A DNA stretch of 36,775 nt from a virus (lineage: Duplodnaviria; Caudoviricetes), in IMG/VR virus record IMGVR_UViG_3300044274_000303, positions 1-36,775 of that record; one strand, 5' to 3'. The notes beneath the pieces were generated by a model, which was not told the origin of the DNA, ran no database searches, and saw nothing but the letters and a program-made list of their open reading frames with translations. The translations under genes and the position numbers were made by a program. Numbering within the stretch: position 1 is the first letter of the stretch; each line of letters starts with the position of its first letter. This document shows, piece after piece, positions 16,353 through 27,233 of the stretch.

Positions 16353-17501
16353 TTACTTGTCACCAAAATAGGCTGCTTCTAAAGCTTCAGCTTGTTCTGG
16401 GTTTTCTACTTTCATCTTTTCGTAAGCCTGTGGGTCTTTATCTATATAATCATCTAAAGTCCAGTCTTTACGTGATGCTTCTAAAGCATCATTACCATCT
16501 GCTGGCGTTAAGTTTTTACTTAACTTTGGTTTAGTAACCATTGCATCTAATGCAGTTTTAGCTGCATCATAATTTGCGGTTGCTAAATCCACATAGGTTT
16601 GCTTTTGATCTGCTGTAATTTTTTTAGCAGTAATCGCTTCATCAACCAAAGCATTTACTTTTTGTTCTGCTTCTGTTGTTTCAGTTTCTTCTTTAGCTGC
16701 AACAGTTTCACGTTGTTTTAAAGCATCTACTTTCATAGCTTTTTTTGCTGCTTCAATCTGTTCATCTGTAGCATTAGCTTCTAAGCCTAAAAAGGCAATT
16801 AGTTCTTCTTTGTCCATGATTTGTCTATTATTTATTTTTGATTTTGTTGCTTTTGGTAGAATAGGTGCGCCACAAGCTTCTAGTATAGTTACATCTTCTG
16901 CGCTAATTGTGCCTTCTTCATCAATAATAGCATCAATAAAGCCTTCTTCTTTAGCTTCTTCTGCACTCATCCAGTGATCGCCACCCTTCCATAGTTCTTC
17001 AATTTCAGCCTTGGTTTTACCTGTCTTTTTAGCATATTTTGCCAAATAATCTTTGGTAACACTTTTAAGTAGCTTTAATTCTTTAGTTATCTGGTCTTCA
17101 TTACCAAATGTGCCAAGCATTGGCTTATGGATCATTATTTGCGAATTGACATAAGCACTGGTGTGGTGACAAGCAGTAAAGTAAGTTGCTGCACTGGCAG
17201 CTGCTGCACCTACAGTAATATTGACTTTTTTAAATCGGTTTAGCTGGTTGTTAATTTCAACCGCTTCAAATACAGAACCGCCATTACTATTTATATACAC
17301 ATCTGCTTCTGTATGTGTTTTTAATAGTTCGTCTACCTTTTTCTGAAAATCACTAGAGTTATTGGCATTCCAATTTGCTATACGTCCTATAATGCGTATA
17401 TAAGCTTTACCATCCTTACTTTCAGCTGTAAGTTGTAATGGTTTTGCCTTGCCATCTGGCTTTGCAGAACCTATAATAATGATGTGTTTTTGTGACTTCA
17501 T
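16353..17501 (-). CDS. ClpP-type head maturation protease fused to scaffold domain
   Basis: INSNGGSV, AASAA (Ser), MIHKP (His), WMSAEEA.EEGFID; C-terminal half (MDKEELIAFLGL..ATDEQI..VDEAI..KIT) resembles a Mu gpI/Z scaffold. Confidence 0.9.
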   Translation of the reverse strand: MKSQKHIIIIGSAKPDGKAKPLQLTAESKDGKAYIRIIGRIANWNANNSSDFQKKVDELLKTHTEADVYINSNGGSVFEAVEINNQLNRFKKVNITVGAAAASAATYFTACHHTSAYVNSQIMIHKPMLGTFGNEDQITKELKLLKSVTKDYLAKYAKKTGKTKAEIEELWKGGDHWMSAEEAKEEGFIDAIIDEEGTISAEDVTILEACGAPILPKATKSKINNRQIMDKEELIAFLGLEANATDEQIEAAKKAMKVDALKQRETVAAKEETETTEAEQKVNALVDEAITAKKITADQKQTYVDLATANYDAAKTALDAMVTKPKLSKNLTPADGNDALEASRKDWTLDDYIDKDPQAYEKMKVENPEQAEALEAAYFGDK

Positions 17502-20000: not shown

Positions 20001-20416
20001 TTTATTTAACAGATGATGATTTATTAACCGATAGTTTCCAGCGTTTCATTGATGAAAGTACAAAGGATGATGAAGATGTTATTGGTAATGCAGAATTAAA
20101 ATGTATTGGTGTCATTAAAACGATGCTTAAAGGGCGTTATAACACCGATTTAATTTTTGATGAAGACCAGCCTGTACGTGATGAATTTCTAGCAGATATA
20201 TTAACCAAGTTAACATTGCATAAAATCTTTGGTCGTAATGCAGCACGTAAAGTACCAACAGATGTAAAAGATAATTATGATTGGGCAATGAAGCAATTGA
20301 CTATGCTAAATGCTGGAAAATTACAACTAGAATTACCAAGTCCAACAAATACCGATGGCACAACTTCAGTAGCGCCTATGTTTGGCAATAATACTAATCC
20401 AGATTTTTATATATAA
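19997..20416 (+). CDS. Head-tail adaptor, Mu gp36-like (DUF1320)
   Basis: YLTDDDL..L.GRY..Y.WAMK.L..LNAGKLQL pattern. Confidence 0.8.
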   Translation: MIYLTDDDLLTDSFQRFIDESTKDDEDVIGNAELKCIGVIKTMLKGRYNTDLIFDEDQPVRDEFLADILTKLTLHKIFGRNAARKVPTDVKDNYDWAMKQLTMLNAGKLQLELPSPTNTDGTTSVAPMFGNNTNPDFYI

Positions 20417-21690
20417 TGAGAATACCAAAATTTATACATAACGCAGTTGCAAAGTATGTTTTTAACAACACCGATGAAAAAACATTAAGAGTAGTAGCAG
20501 CAACAAAGTCTGGTAGCAACAAAGCGTTAAGTTATCAAACAGAAAAAGAAGCTATTAATATGCAAGCCAAAACGCTTGCAGATTGGAAATTAGCACTAAC
20601 ATTAGCCAGCGACCCAGAAGAACCTAATTTTAATGAATTAGAAAAGCTATACCAAAATTTGGAATTAGACAATCATTTAGTAGCTACTATAGAAAACCGA
20701 ATAGAACCAGTACAAGGCACGCCATTTAAGTTTACAGATCAATCTGGTAAAGAAAATGAAGAAGCCAAAGAACTGTTTGAAGCAATGTGGTTTATAGATT
20801 TTATTGGGGTGTGTCTGCGTTCAAAATTTCAAGGTTCTAAAGTGATTGAATTATATGACTTAGACGAAAACATGCATTTAGAGACTATCACAGAAGTACC
20901 TAAAGCACACGTAATACCATCAAAAGGGATAATTACAAAAGAAGCTGGTGGTACTACAGGATGGAACTATAAAGAAGGTGTTTTAAAAGATCAATACATC
21001 CAAATTGGTAAAGATGATTTTCTTGGGATGTATGCACAGCTTGCGCCAATCGTACTGGCTAAAAAATTAGGCTTTGGGTCTTGGTTAGACTACATAGAAA
21101 AGTATGGTGTACCACCAATTTTTGCAATAACAGACCGTGAAGACCAAGCACGTTTAGACCAGCTGTACAATGCACTGTTAAATTTCAAGTCCAACAACTT
21201 TATGGTGGGTCGTGGACAAGAAAAGTTTGAAATTGGCAAAGATACTGGTGGTGGTTCTTTTGATATTTTTGACAAACTCATTGAACGTGCTAATAGTGAA
21301 CTATCTAAACGTATTTTAGGTGGTACAGGTACAAGTGATGAAAAAAGCCATGTTGGCGCTGCCAAAGTACACGCAGCTATTTTAGCAACAAAGCATAAGT
21401 TAGATAAGTTTTTTGTAAAGGTTATCATCAATAACCAACTAATACCACGCCTTGTAAAATTAAGTCCTGTATATGCACCTTTAGCCAATCTAAAGTTTGA
21501 ATGGGATGATACCGAAAACTTGACATTAGACCAATACATAGCAGCGGTTAAAGATTTAAGTGCGTATTATGAAATAGATATTAAAGAATTAGCTACACGT
21601 ACAGGAATACCCATTACTGGCTTAAAAAAGGCTATGGACACACCAGAGGCAGATCCAGAACCAACGCCAGAACCTCAAAAAAAAAAGTAG
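20416..21690 (+). CDS. Portal protein, Mu gp29-like (DUF935)
   Basis: DNHL.A.IE.R, W..YIEKYGVP, NSELSK.ILG.T.TSD and VH motifs. Confidence 0.92.
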   Translation: MRIPKFIHNAVAKYVFNNTDEKTLRVVAATKSGSNKALSYQTEKEAINMQAKTLADWKLALTLASDPEEPNFNELEKLYQNLELDNHLVATIENRIEPVQGTPFKFTDQSGKENEEAKELFEAMWFIDFIGVCLRSKFQGSKVIELYDLDENMHLETITEVPKAHVIPSKGIITKEAGGTTGWNYKEGVLKDQYIQIGKDDFLGMYAQLAPIVLAKKLGFGSWLDYIEKYGVPPIFAITDREDQARLDQLYNALLNFKSNNFMVGRGQEKFEIGKDTGGGSFDIFDKLIERANSELSKRILGGTGTSDEKSHVGAAKVHAAILATKHKLDKFFVKVIINNQLIPRLVKLSPVYAPLANLKFEWDDTENLTLDQYIAAVKDLSAYYEIDIKELATRTGIPITGLKKAMDTPEADPEPTPEPQKKK

Positions 21691-22961
21691 TTACTGAAGC
21701 TGTTGCTAACATTGAAGCTTATTATGAAAAGCCTGTATGTTCACATGGGTCTGTAGAACCTTTAGCAGTAGATCTGAACTATTGGAATAAAACCATTATA
21801 CGTATTGCCAGACAATTACATAATGGTCAACTAAAACCAAGTGATTTAGACAAAGATTTATTGCAAAAAACCTTTAACCAGCTTAATAAAGCTGCTACTG
21901 AAGGTTATGGTGCGAATTACGATAGTTACAGCAAAAGCCACAATAAGACAGTACAACAGCTGCGACAAAATATTTACCAGTTTAGTGCTGCTAAAACCTT
22001 TCAACAGTTACAGCATTTCAATAGTCTTTTAGTAGATGAAAATGGTAAAGAACGTTCTTTTTCCAGCTTCAAAAATGCTGTATTAACTGTACACCCTAAA
22101 TACAATGTCAATTATTTACAAGCCGAATACCAGACCGCAAAAGCATCTGCACAAATGGCACGTAAATGGCAGACTTTTGAGCGTAACCGTGACCGCTTCC
22201 CATACTTAAAATATAAAACTGTAGGTGATGAACACGTACGTGACGATCACCAGAAACTACACAACTTTACAGCACATATTGATGATCCCATATGGAATAA
22301 GATTTACCCACCTAATGACTGGCGTTGTCGTTGCTATGTTGTGCAAACCAATCAAGCCAGTGATGAACCAGCACCAGATATAAGTTTTATAGATCCAGAA
22401 TTTAGTATAAATGTTGGTAAAACTGGTGTGATATTTTCACCAGAACACCCATACTTTGTATTTCCTAAAAAAGATAAAGACAGCTTTAAAAAAGCCTTTG
22501 AAAGTTTTAAGCTAATTGCACCTTATGGTAAGGCTAGATATACAGCTAAAAATGGGTCAAAAGTATTTGTAAATCCATTTGCAGATGTTAAGGATCTAAA
22601 GCACAATTTTGAAGTGGCAAAGGTAATTGCAGACACGGTTAAAAAATCAGTGAGTATAAGACCACATATAGATGGTCGTGTGCTTCCTAAATTAAAAAAC
22701 CCAGAATACTTAATTGATAAAAAGTTAGCAGATCTAAAAGCGCCTAAAGGATTGCTATTAAAAAACATATTCAAAAAGGCTAATAAGCAAAAGACAGCTG
22801 TAGTGGTGATTGATTTAATAGACAATCCAAACACATTTAAAACAATGAAGACTGCGGTTATAGAAAAGCTAAAGAATAACGATATATACCCTAATATTAA
22901 AGAAGTGATTTTAATATCAAAAGACCGTAAAACTGTAGAAGTGATTAAACGTAAAAAGTAG
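21687..22961 (+). CDS. MuF (Mu gp30-like) minor head protein with C-terminal CdiA-like PD-(D/E)xK nuclease; probably made as a -1 frameshift fusion to the portal
   Basis: MuF motifs YL.AEYQTA, Y.TVGDEHVR.DH, YPPNDWRCRC and F..NVG; C-terminal KNPEYLID..LADLK; frame open from the portal stop with no ATG/GTG/TTG before the TTG at 21861. Confidence 0.85.
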   Translation, partial: VVTEAVANIEAYYEKPVCSHGSVEPLAVDLNYWNKTIIRIARQLHNGQLKPSDLDKDLLQKTFNQLNKAATEGYGANYDSYSKSHNKTVQQLRQNIYQFSAAKTFQQLQHFNSLLVDENGKERSFSSFKNAVLTVHPKYNVNYLQAEYQTAKASAQMARKWQTFERNRDRFPYLKYKTVGDEHVRDDHQKLHNFTAHIDDPIWNKIYPPNDWRCRCYVVQTNQASDEPAPDISFIDPEFSINVGKTGVIFSPEHPYFVFPKKDKDSFKKAFESFKLIAPYGKARYTAKNGSKVFVNPFADVKDLKHNFEVAKVIADTVKKSVSIRPHIDGRVLPKLKNPEYLIDKKLADLKAPKGLLLKNIFKKANKQKTAVVVIDLIDNPNTFKTMKTAVIEKLKNNDIYPNIKEVILISKDRKTVEVIKRKK

Positions 22962-22965
22962 GCAC

Positions 22966-22994
22966 AAAAAAAGCAACTCGAAAGTTGCCTTTTT
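22966..22994. terminator. Bidirectional intrinsic terminator, stronger on the - strand
   Basis: GCAACT-[CGAA; UUCG on -]-AGTTGC stem with A7 on the left (U7 on -) and T5 on the right. Confidence 0.8.
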
Positions 22995-23034
22995 ATAAGT
23001 TACGTTCTTGCATTTTACGTCGCAAACTTCCTTA
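22966..23034 (-). ncRNA. Candidate ~65-70 nt small RNA convergent on the MuF-nuclease gene
   Basis: Perfect -7 box TATATTTG (23047-23040), TTG 21 bp upstream, a 33-nt self-complementary core, then a terminator with U7; no ATG-initiated ORF of note inside. Confidence 0.55.
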
Positions 23035-24342: not shown

Positions 24343-24735
24343 TTACTGTGTGGCTTCTTCGTATTCTTTTTTAGATGCCAATAATTTATTTTTAGTATAT
24401 GGTTTCAAACTTTCAGCAGGATTGACTTTATTAGCTTCATTATAGTATTGCAGTCCTTTTTTATAACTACTTACATGTAATTCTTCATCTAAATTTATTA
24501 AGGAATTAGCAGCCCTAAAATACCTATCTGCGATTAGATACATTATAATACTTTTTACTTTATTGCATCTTTCAGTTGGTTCTTCTATACATTTAGGCTT
24601 AATGAGTTCTAAGCCTTTTTTTAAGTCTTTATTTCTGGTATGTGTATTTGCATACTGGTCAAATATTTCTTCAACAGTTTGTGCTTGTGAAAGGCTAAAA
24701 CTAAACAGAAGTGCTATAAATAGTAATCTTTTCAT
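24343..24735 (-). CDS. Secreted/periplasmic alpha-helical protein (accessory)
   Basis: Sec signal peptide MKRLLFIALLFSFSLSQA|Q, a Cys pair and TPR-like helices; ATGA overlap with the rhomboid gene. Confidence 0.75.
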   Translation of the reverse strand: MKRLLFIALLFSFSLSQAQTVEEIFDQYANTHTRNKDLKKGLELIKPKCIEEPTERCNKVKSIIMYLIADRYFRAANSLINLDEELHVSSYKKGLQYYNEANKVNPAESLKPYTKNKLLASKKEYEEATQ

Positions 24736-25319
24736 AATTGGTTATTTGTGTTAAAATTAATAAAGTCTTTTTTAATTATTCGCTTTTGAGCAAAAAATAA
24801 TACTCCAGCTATAGCACCACCAATGTGCGAGATATAACCACCACTATTATTTGTGAGTAGAACACCAGCAATATCTATGCCTAATATCAATACTGCAAAA
24901 TATTTTAGTTTAAATCTTGAAGCAAAAACTGCTATTGTTTTATTTGGTAATACAAGGCACGTAAACAGTGTTATTGCTCTTACAGCTGCGCTAGCACCAA
25001 TTAACGAATTGTTGTAATTGAAATAGGTGCTAAATATTAAAAATGCAATAGCACCAGTAGTTGCGCCAAGCAAATATAGTTTTAGTAGATGCTTATGTTG
25101 GTTAATGGACTTTAAAAGGTTTGCCATAAAAATTAATAGCGCCATATTTAGCAATAGATGAATAAAACTACTATGCAAAAAGCTATAACTTACAACTGAT
25201 AAAACACCATTTAAAGAGTAATTAAATGGTGCGTATAAACTGCTAACTTCTATTATTGAAGTGAATTTTGAAAGGGCAAAAACAATAACATTTAGTATAA
25301 TAATCTGGTATAGCTTCAT
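24732..25319 (-). CDS. Rhomboid family intramembrane serine protease
   Basis: HxxxxHxxxNM (HSSFIHLLLNM), GAS catalytic Ser (LIGASAA), catalytic His (SHIGGAIAG), about 6 TM segments. Confidence 0.92.
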   Translation of the reverse strand: MKLYQIIILNVIVFALSKFTSIIEVSSLYAPFNYSLNGVLSVVSYSFLHSSFIHLLLNMALLIFMANLLKSINQHKHLLKLYLLGATTGAIAFLIFSTYFNYNNSLIGASAAVRAITLFTCLVLPNKTIAVFASRFKLKYFAVLILGIDIAGVLLTNNSGGYISHIGGAIAGVLFFAQKRIIKKDFINFNTNNQL

Positions 25320-26450: not shown

Positions 26451-27233
26451 TTAAAGGTTTAATGAATATGTTGTGCGCTTTGGCTTAACATAATTTGTAA
26501 TTAAAATTTCGTTTCTTTTGTTCTTTAGGTTTTGGCGCTCTTTTAAATAGATCACGTTCATTTTGTAGTCAGAAGCAAAATCTAATACTTGTTCAATATC
26601 AAATTCAGACATAGCAGAATTAATGCCGCTGGAGTCCATTATTTTAAAACAGTCTTCTGTATCTTCTACAGTCCATTTAGGCACTTTATAAGTATGTTCT
26701 GTAAATAGGTAAACAGGATCTAAATAATTGAAGCAAGCAGATTTTGGCGTTACATCTGGGTGAAAAGAAATTTTATTTAAAACGTCTCTAAAATCAACAT
26801 TGGTAATTTTTGCATTTGATAAATAGCTAAATGTTGGTTCTATTCTGTTTATTAGGTTTCTTTTACAATGGTCTATTCTTAAACGTATTGTATCACCTTT
26901 GCCTAAATAAGTGAAGTTTGATAGTAGTAAAAACCGTATGGCTTTTCTTAAAGGATCTGTTTCTAAATTTTTAAGCCAATATTTGATCAAGTTTTCAGTG
27001 ATTGGCAAAAGTTCTAATTGTTGCTTTAGTTCATCTTTACGATCAAGTAACACCAAATACAAATTAGTAACATCATCATCTGCATCATTCAATATTGAAA
27101 ACTTTGGCTTAGGCAAGTAAAAATAGCTGCCACCAGCGCCAAAGAAAAATTCTATTCGCATTCTGTGTGGCATAAAGTGTTGTTGTAACTCTTTAGCTAT
27201 TTTACGTTTATTACCTAACCTGGTTAATATCAT
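26451..27233 (-). CDS. DNA adenine methyltransferase (Dam/D12 class)
   Basis: LGNKRK, EFFFGAGG (motif I), ILND, DFRDV, YLDPVY (motif IV variant) and EILITNY. Confidence 0.9.
   Translation of the reverse strand: MILTRLGNKRKIAKELQQHFMPHRMRIEFFFGAGGSYFYLPKPKFSILNDADDDVTNLYLVLLDRKDELKQQLELLPITENLIKYWLKNLETDPLRKAIRFLLLSNFTYLGKGDTIRLRIDHCKRNLINRIEPTFSYLSNAKITNVDFRDVLNKISFHPDVTPKSACFNYLDPVYLFTEHTYKVPKWTVEDTEDCFKIMDSSGINSAMSEFDIEQVLDFASDYKMNVIYLKERQNLKNKRNEILITNYVKPKRTTYSLNL

Follow-up and report, generated by a model that had tools for sequence, protein, structure and literature searches.

A conserved run of ten adenines at the end of a phage portal gene: a predicted RNA polymerase slippage site that would join portal and MuF

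In the DNA of IMG/VR virus record IMGVR_UViG_3300044274_000303 (36,775 nucleotides (nt), hereafter the window), which is a 36.8-kb Mu-like prophage of the Bacteroidota type, the gene for the portal protein ends in a run of ten adenines (A10), and the MuF gene behind it lies in the -1 frame. From a comparison with several hundred related loci and proteins, we conclude that portal and MuF are very probably joined by recoding at this junction. We further propose that A10 is probably a programmed RNA polymerase slippage site, at which mRNAs of varied run length would yield both a 424-amino-acid (aa) portal and an 848-aa portal-MuF fusion from one locus.

The portal gene is of the Mu gp29 type (20416..21690, + strand; PF06074, E 4.5e-58; phrog_113 portal), its 424 aa are the product of the unslipped mRNA, and its 3' end reads CAA AAA AAA AAG TAG. 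The A10 run, the predicted slip site, occupies 21677..21686 (+) and is the sole A or T run of nine or longer in the window, where the next longest are one A8 and two T8. As a preliminary description of this DNA had stated, the run holds an in-phase A_AAA_AAG heptamer (21681..21687, +) directly before the UAG stop, which lies 1 nt past the run (21688..21690, +); AAAAAAG by itself is frequent in the window (16 on the + strand, 38 on the - strand, 54 on both). In the third (+1) frame, a UGA 8 nt past the run (21695..21697, +) would terminate translation of an mRNA shortened by one A, and such an early third-frame stop is conserved as a feature. The MuF frame (gp30/SPP1 gp7-type; 21687..22961, +; -1 relative to the portal) carries PF04233 at about 22104-22340 (E 5.7e-15). 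The -1 frame is open from 21585 to 22961, and the frame scan agrees with the earlier claim that it offers no start for 58 codons: its first ATG, GTG or TTG is the TTG at 21861, upstream of which there are ATT, CTG and ATA codons only. The computed transframe product has 848 aa and 96.5 kDa, and the portal alone has 47.7 kDa.

Four collection scans, together with the window, gave 242 loci; 8 were dropped, and the 234 with a MuF match fell into 104 representatives at 95% portal identity. The run at the junction is A10 in 90 of these representatives, A11 in 5, A12 in 1, A9 in 4, A7 in 1, A6 in 2, and missing in 1. In other words, it is at least ten long in 96/104 and at least nine long in 100/104, and in 95 of the latter 100 the next base is G. 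The rest of the representatives' 621,696 bases contains no A run of ten or more and one T10. In the first search, all 14 loci carry A10G with MuF in the -1 frame, the conservation of frame that the preliminary description had looked for in homologues. A phylum-wide genome sample gave matches in 5/401 genomes, and L245-L247 were without a usable portal/MuF pair. The nearest cultured phage is Winogradskyella phage Peternella_1 (Winoviridae, MT732475; portal identity 71.7%), a Mu-like flavophage (PMC8776804) with the same gene order, A10 and MuF in the -1 frame; its annotation has two genes and starts MuF about 100 nt downstream, and the word “frameshift” is absent from the passages of PMC8776804 covered here. 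One prophage, that of Neptunitalea chrysea (L019:4200-4300), is alone in combining A11 with a MuF gene in the +1 frame; fusion there would need the loss of one A, or the record is a length variant.

At the protein level, the run encodes three lysines (KKK), which are found within the last 16 residues in 107 of the 120 near-length portal proteins among the matches listed. Because AAA makes up a median 68% of the lysine codons, and because these genes write nine further KKK motifs with A runs of just 3-6, lysine content does not explain A10. The Pro/Glu-rich linker that had been noted ahead of the site is present (21640..21678, +) and is like the low-complexity linkers before KKK in relatives in which portal and MuF are split between two frames, as here, and in relatives in which they are fused in one.

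Such fused genes are numerous. A search for longer proteins gave 101 long relatives (743-1091 aa), almost all of which bear annotations for portal and MuF domains; KKK is kept at the junction in 94/101, and the best of them align end to end with the computed 848-aa product at 44-48% identity. PHROG 35074 is likewise one profile that spans portal and MuF. Among the fused representatives (n = 50), the run is A10 in 47 and A11 in 3. In-frame fusions make up about half of the relatives. This share reflects the sampling and is not a frequency, as part of the retrieval of loci relied on an alignment of fused proteins. For 88 portals, a quick tree implies at least 8 changes between fused and split, with the reservation that its long branches make the deep part unreliable and that 4-5 of the 8 changes rest on single A9/A11/A12 loci or on a long branch; switches from A10 to A10 are placed at L229, at L129 and at a mostly fused clade of 40 rows. 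The fusion product of about 848 aa proposed earlier is thus upheld by the conserved slip site, by a conserved start-less N-terminus and by fused relatives of the predicted length.

The existence of fused relatives also raises the possibility that the window is a natively fused gene with a true A11 and an assembly error in the homopolymer. This explanation is effectively excluded: 86/234 loci are split with A10, and the fused genes also have A10, not A11. The choice between A10 and A11, raised in the preliminary description, comes out as A10 at the contig level, where contigs from 4/4 public runs span the run gap-free (0 gaps, depth 16-94); three of the four runs are possibly the source of the window DNA, and contigs drop rare variants, which are therefore invisible here.

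The 58 start-less codons in the -1 frame (21687..21860, +) form a conserved N-terminal region of MuF, with a Y..C..H motif followed by a confidently predicted helix at residues 30-46. The stretch between the run and the MuF core can be aligned as protein in 40 split A10 loci. In 15 non-overlapping pairs of split A10 loci, the ratio of nonsynonymous to synonymous substitution rates (dN/dS) is 0.13 for codons 1-58, 0.06 for the MuF core and 0.20 for the C-terminus, rough values given that dS is near saturation (1.3-1.6). In the structural model of MuF, the confidence score pLDDT is about 45 at residues 1-30 and 86-92 at residues 31-60, and the confidently predicted helices begin at residue 30, upstream of the TTG. 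Judged by its substitution pattern, this region is coding and under purifying selection.

If there were no recoding, MuF would have to be made from a weak or non-canonical start (the TTG at 21861, or the ATT at 21711 by re-initiation), and KKK would be kept for a reason at the protein level. In-frame ATT and CTG codons do lie upstream of 21861, GenBank starts the Peternella_1 MuF downstream, and the Winoviridae phages pippi8-1 and FPSV-S1 have separate genes, with an ATG of their own for MuF and no slip site. A proper MuF start in homologues, which by the preliminary description would speak against the frameshift, is thus found in these two phages; in the 40 split A10 loci, however, the first ATG, GTG or TTG is scattered over positions 0-157, and in 16/40 the first ATG is at position 157, deep in the MuF domain. 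Conserved residues precede every candidate start save ATT 21711, KKK needs no unbroken A10, and A10 within the fused genes would be left unexplained. We therefore hold separate initiation to be very improbable.

Hardly more probable is phase variation at the DNA level, in which the run would mutate between A10 and A11 (or A9) in replication, each genome would encode one form, and MuF would be on or off in the population. Near-identical junctions that differ by one A (L137/L138, L144/L140, L226/L230) and the A9, A11 and A12 variants fit this idea, but odd run lengths may be assembly errors, and each clade is almost wholly A10, be it “off” (split) or “on” (fused). Moreover, purifying selection acts on MuF in the split clade (dN/dS 0.06-0.20, as above), and the cultured Peternella_1 has A10 and is split.

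Recoding at the junction could occur in the RNA polymerase or in the ribosome. The preliminary description had put forward A_AAA_AAG as the slip motif, with transcriptional slippage as an option. The option now appears likelier, in view of the conserved run length and the missing 3' hairpin, and the in-phase A_AAA_AAG is not what relatives conserve, as it occurs in just 4/43 split A10 representatives. The phase of the run is free in the split A10 loci (phases 0/1/2 = 26/4/13). In the third frame, which is reached when one A is lost or two are gained and into which a -1 shift of the ribosome never leads, a stop follows within 20 nt in 42/43 split loci (26.6 expected) and in 33/43 fused loci (16.9 expected), and these stops are a mixture of TAA, TGA and TAG. 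In the -1 frame of the fused A10 loci, a stop lies within 20 nt in 41/43 (19.1 expected), typically 3 nt past the run, so that slippage in a fused gene would set free a short portal. The expected counts come from synonymous resampling, and the tests cover A10 loci whose MuF frame is open for at least 600 nt, which leaves out truncated contigs and early MuF stops (L061, L108, L193).

Folding gave no 3' hairpin at the A10 of the window (z +0.9 to +1.24), and A10 loci are generally without 3' structure (median z 0.11 and -0.51; z below -2 in 1/19 split and 3/34 fused loci). Nor was a Shine-Dalgarno-like 5' stimulator evident by eye in the 30 nt upstream of the run. Three sequence features expected of programmed transcriptional slippage (of the tssM, Thermus thermophilus dnaX and mxiE/spa13 type) are seen at this site, namely a homopolymer of at least nine conserved at the nucleotide level, independence of phase and stimulator (with the fused loci skewed in phase), and early stops in both non-productive frames. 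As for programmed -1 ribosomal frameshifting (of the E. coli dnaX, IS3 and lambda GT type), an in-phase X_XXY_YYZ is present in the window, whereas the identity and phase of the heptamer are not conserved and a stimulatory hairpin 5-9 nt downstream was not found.

The tail chaperone of the same phage serves as a control. Its G/GT-type -1 site (11809-11803, - strand; chaperone open reading frame (ORF) 12129-11797, frame to 11551) is an in-phase A_AAA_AAG with A6 only and a 3' hairpin 5 nt downstream, and its -1 frame is open for 87 codons, up to the start of the tape measure gene. A6G in a fixed phase is found at the site in 11/14 related genomes with a match (15 records searched), always with a predicted 3' stem, and A10 is found there in none of the 14. 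It should be mentioned that in three phages of the fused type (L268, L269 and L270) the -1 frame is open for 72-82 codons past the chaperone stop, and the chaperone ends without any of the eight heptamers scanned for. Because of the free phase, the third-frame stops, the lack of 3' structure and the contrast with the tail chaperone, RNA polymerase slippage is favoured over shifting at the in-phase A_AAA_AAG.

The same two products could nevertheless come from the ribosome, either by sliding on AAA codons or by a tandem -1 shift, which would take place at A_AAA_AAG or A_AAA_AAA and would here profit from the adjoining UAG; we consider this a real but rather unlikely alternative. In its favour, the window has the in-phase A_AAA_AAG right before the stop. 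Against it, A6G would suffice for such a shift, as at the tail-chaperone site, but the portal site keeps ten A's in any phase and is without a 3' hairpin, and a pure -1 shift does not predict early stops in the third frame.

Several observations weigh against slippage by the polymerase, or against the strength of the case as a whole. Every A10 holds an in-phase A_AAA_AAA whatever its phase, and the sliding of ribosomes along repeated AAA codons is documented for poly-A (PMC4363877; for this and the other papers cited, our statements concern the passages covered), so that a slip at the level of the ribosome could also reach both other frames. Of the fused A10 representatives, 42/47 have the run in such a phase that A_AAA_AAG is read in phase and a -1 stop comes just past it, the arrangement of Escherichia coli dnaX. 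The third-frame signal is weaker when loci are clustered at 65% (split 6/6 against 2.8 expected, p about 0.007; fused 8/11 against 5.3, p about 0.05). The loci share ancestry, which inflates the statistics, and third-frame stops may be partly inherited through interconversion of fused and split genes. The separate genes of pippi8-1 and FPSV-S1 mean that fusion is not universal. Short heptamers with hairpins in more distant relatives indicate that ribosomal shifting serves the portal-MuF junction elsewhere.

The distant relatives deserve a closer description. MuF is put in the -1 frame by G_GGA_AAG in L023, by in-phase A6G/A7G in L034, L064, L026 and L052, by T_TTT_TTC in L243, L244, L255, L256 and Bacteroides phage p00, and by A_AAT_TTT in BS-TP1; a stem lies 4-8 nt downstream in 9/12 heptamer-type loci folded. 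In p00, a cultured gut phage (BK010646, L250:3600-3800), the in-phase T_TTT_TTC is accompanied by a GC hairpin near the portal end, and the -1 frame enters the annotated MuF. The fused gene of a Porphyromonas phage has T_TTT_TTC and a stem, and its -1 frame stops after about 20 codons; Flavobacterium phage fF4 has A9 at the junction. As far as sequences can tell, unrelated slippery signals have converged on one junction, and no other argument speaks as strongly for a selected two-product outcome. The bases past A10 at L131, L133, L134 and L209 resemble the context of the E. coli dnaX shift site.

How might the two products be made and used? In split genes, mRNAs with A10 and A9 would give the short portal and mRNA with A11 the fusion. 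In fused relatives, the logic would be reversed, with A10 giving the fusion and A11 or A9 the short portal. In the window genome, some -1 shifting by the ribosome may come on top, at the in-phase A_AAA_AAG beside UAG. The long form is expected to be a minority in split genomes and may be a majority in fused ones. The low MuF:portal ratio suggested in the preliminary description can thus hold for split genomes only; the in-frame fused relatives would release a short portal instead, and the ratio may differ between clades. The portal ring is a dodecamer, in which short and long subunits would co-assemble, and MuF with its nuclease-fold tip would be loaded covalently into the head, unlike SPP1 gp7, whose attachment to the portal is non-covalent. 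We regard as evenly poised the broader proposal that a single recoded locus supplies the mixed portal rings of Bacteroidota transposable phages, whereby slippage at an exact A10 doses MuF-nuclease subunits in both directions, a heptamer-hairpin is swapped in elsewhere, and the MuF cargo is a covalent tail of the portal. If the proposal is true, annotated “portal-MuF fusion” genes would not yield all-long portals and could work without twelve bulky tails.

Known systems offer parallels. In Citrobacter rodentium tssM1, transcripts of an A11 site have 10-15 As, and both of the resulting length variants are required (PMC4256274). As at the portal, the poly-A lies just before a stop and there is no Shine-Dalgarno or hairpin stimulator; as proposed for the portal, the products are a short and a full-length form of one subunit, which an oligomeric machine needs in a ratio. 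However, tssM1 is a bacterial gene for the type VI secretion membrane complex and has been shown experimentally, whereas the present case is predicted from sequence, concerns a phage portal/head gene, is family-wide and would run in both directions. In dnaX (tau/gamma; PMC5009743, PMC1088944), one site is served by two mechanisms according to lineage, RNA polymerase slippage at A9 in Thermus thermophilus, where stops are nearby in both non-zero frames (PMC5009743), and ribosomal -1 shifting at A_AAA_AAG in E. coli. There, as proposed for the portal, a short and a long subunit share one ring-like complex, and the reversed arrangement is mentioned as a candidate. Unlike dnaX, a cellular replication gene, the phage junction has widespread fused and split versions with the same A10, and at least five types of signal. 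The lambda G/GT-type tail chaperone (PMC5009743) shares with the portal site a conserved frameshift in morphogenesis, variable slippery sequences and a set ratio of short to extended product; it uses a ribosomal heptamer and its products are absent from the virion, whereas the portal site has A10 without a hairpin and its products would be virion proteins.

Annotated portal-MuF fusion genes were already known (PMC7302621, PMC5512222). The word “frameshift” is absent from the covered passages of PMC5576092 and PMC5512222, and in those of PMC7302621 it is used for tail chaperones only. Recoding at the junction is not mentioned in the passages covered of PMC11699363, PMC2628397 and bioRxiv 10.1101/2022.12.30.519816; the GeneTack paper (PMC3711429) has no “portal” or “DUF935” in its main text and two supplementary files (one supplement lay outside the search), and “portal” is absent from the first 300,000 of the 449,034 characters of the Atkins review (PMC5009743). 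We found no report of recoding at the portal-MuF junction in the full-text literature, with subscription papers mostly outside reach, and no virion proteomics of a close relative turned up there. Thus, fused portal-MuF genes and tail-chaperone frameshifts are known, and RNA polymerase slippage at a phage portal gene was not found described in the sources covered. If true, the junction would be a second widespread recoding site in tailed-phage morphogenesis, beside the G/GT chaperone and here in the portal, and it would answer how MuF and toxin-like domains reach the head at a set copy number. It would also correct annotation, MuF being mis-started in split genomes and the short portal missed in fused ones, and the five different signals at one junction would be a natural experiment on the replacement of recoding mechanisms.

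At its C-terminus, the window MuF has a predicted CdiA_C-like nuclease-fold domain (22695..22931, +), with a PF18451 match that passes the cut-off (E 2.2e-6) and a Foldseek match to the CdiA-CT nuclease fold 4G6V_A (E 1.1e-5). Residues N338, E340 and K351 are conserved in 33-37/38 rows. A sequence search of MuF against PDB gave chance-level matches only (best E 0.094). Each SPP1 capsid has 1-2 copies of gp7, bound to the portal non-covalently (PMC5576092), and by analogy a recoded covalent tail would give a similar targeting. As in the MuF/SPP1 gp7 family and the MuF polymorphic toxins (PMC5576092), muf directly follows the portal gene in the head module and ends in a toxin-like domain; it differs from those toxins in that no immunity gene follows. 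In the window there is no room for an immunity ORF adjoining MuF in the 73-nt gap to gpG, and this gap is 42-73 nt in 11/12 loci in which gpG was found and 286 nt in Peternella_1.

The window module consists of a Mu-type terminase, a gp36 adaptor, the gp29-type portal, the gp30-type MuF, gpG, a Clp-type head protease, sheath and tape measure. By this gene module and its portal identity to Peternella_1, the phage is a Winoviridae-like Mu-like flavophage. The protease/capsid/tail operon (as seen at 16353-17501) is transcribed divergently from the terminase-portal-MuF operon (17673 onward), likewise in Peternella_1. A terminator-like hairpin with flanking A and T runs lies between MuF and gpG (22962-23000), within the late operon. 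The prophage also carries a rhomboid-domain gene (PF01694) and a D12-class adenine methyltransferase gene (24732-25319 and 26451-27233, -). In a near-identical copy of the window phage (L002:2690-2710), a deletion cuts the portal to 316 aa, which reflects an assembly error or a defective prophage.

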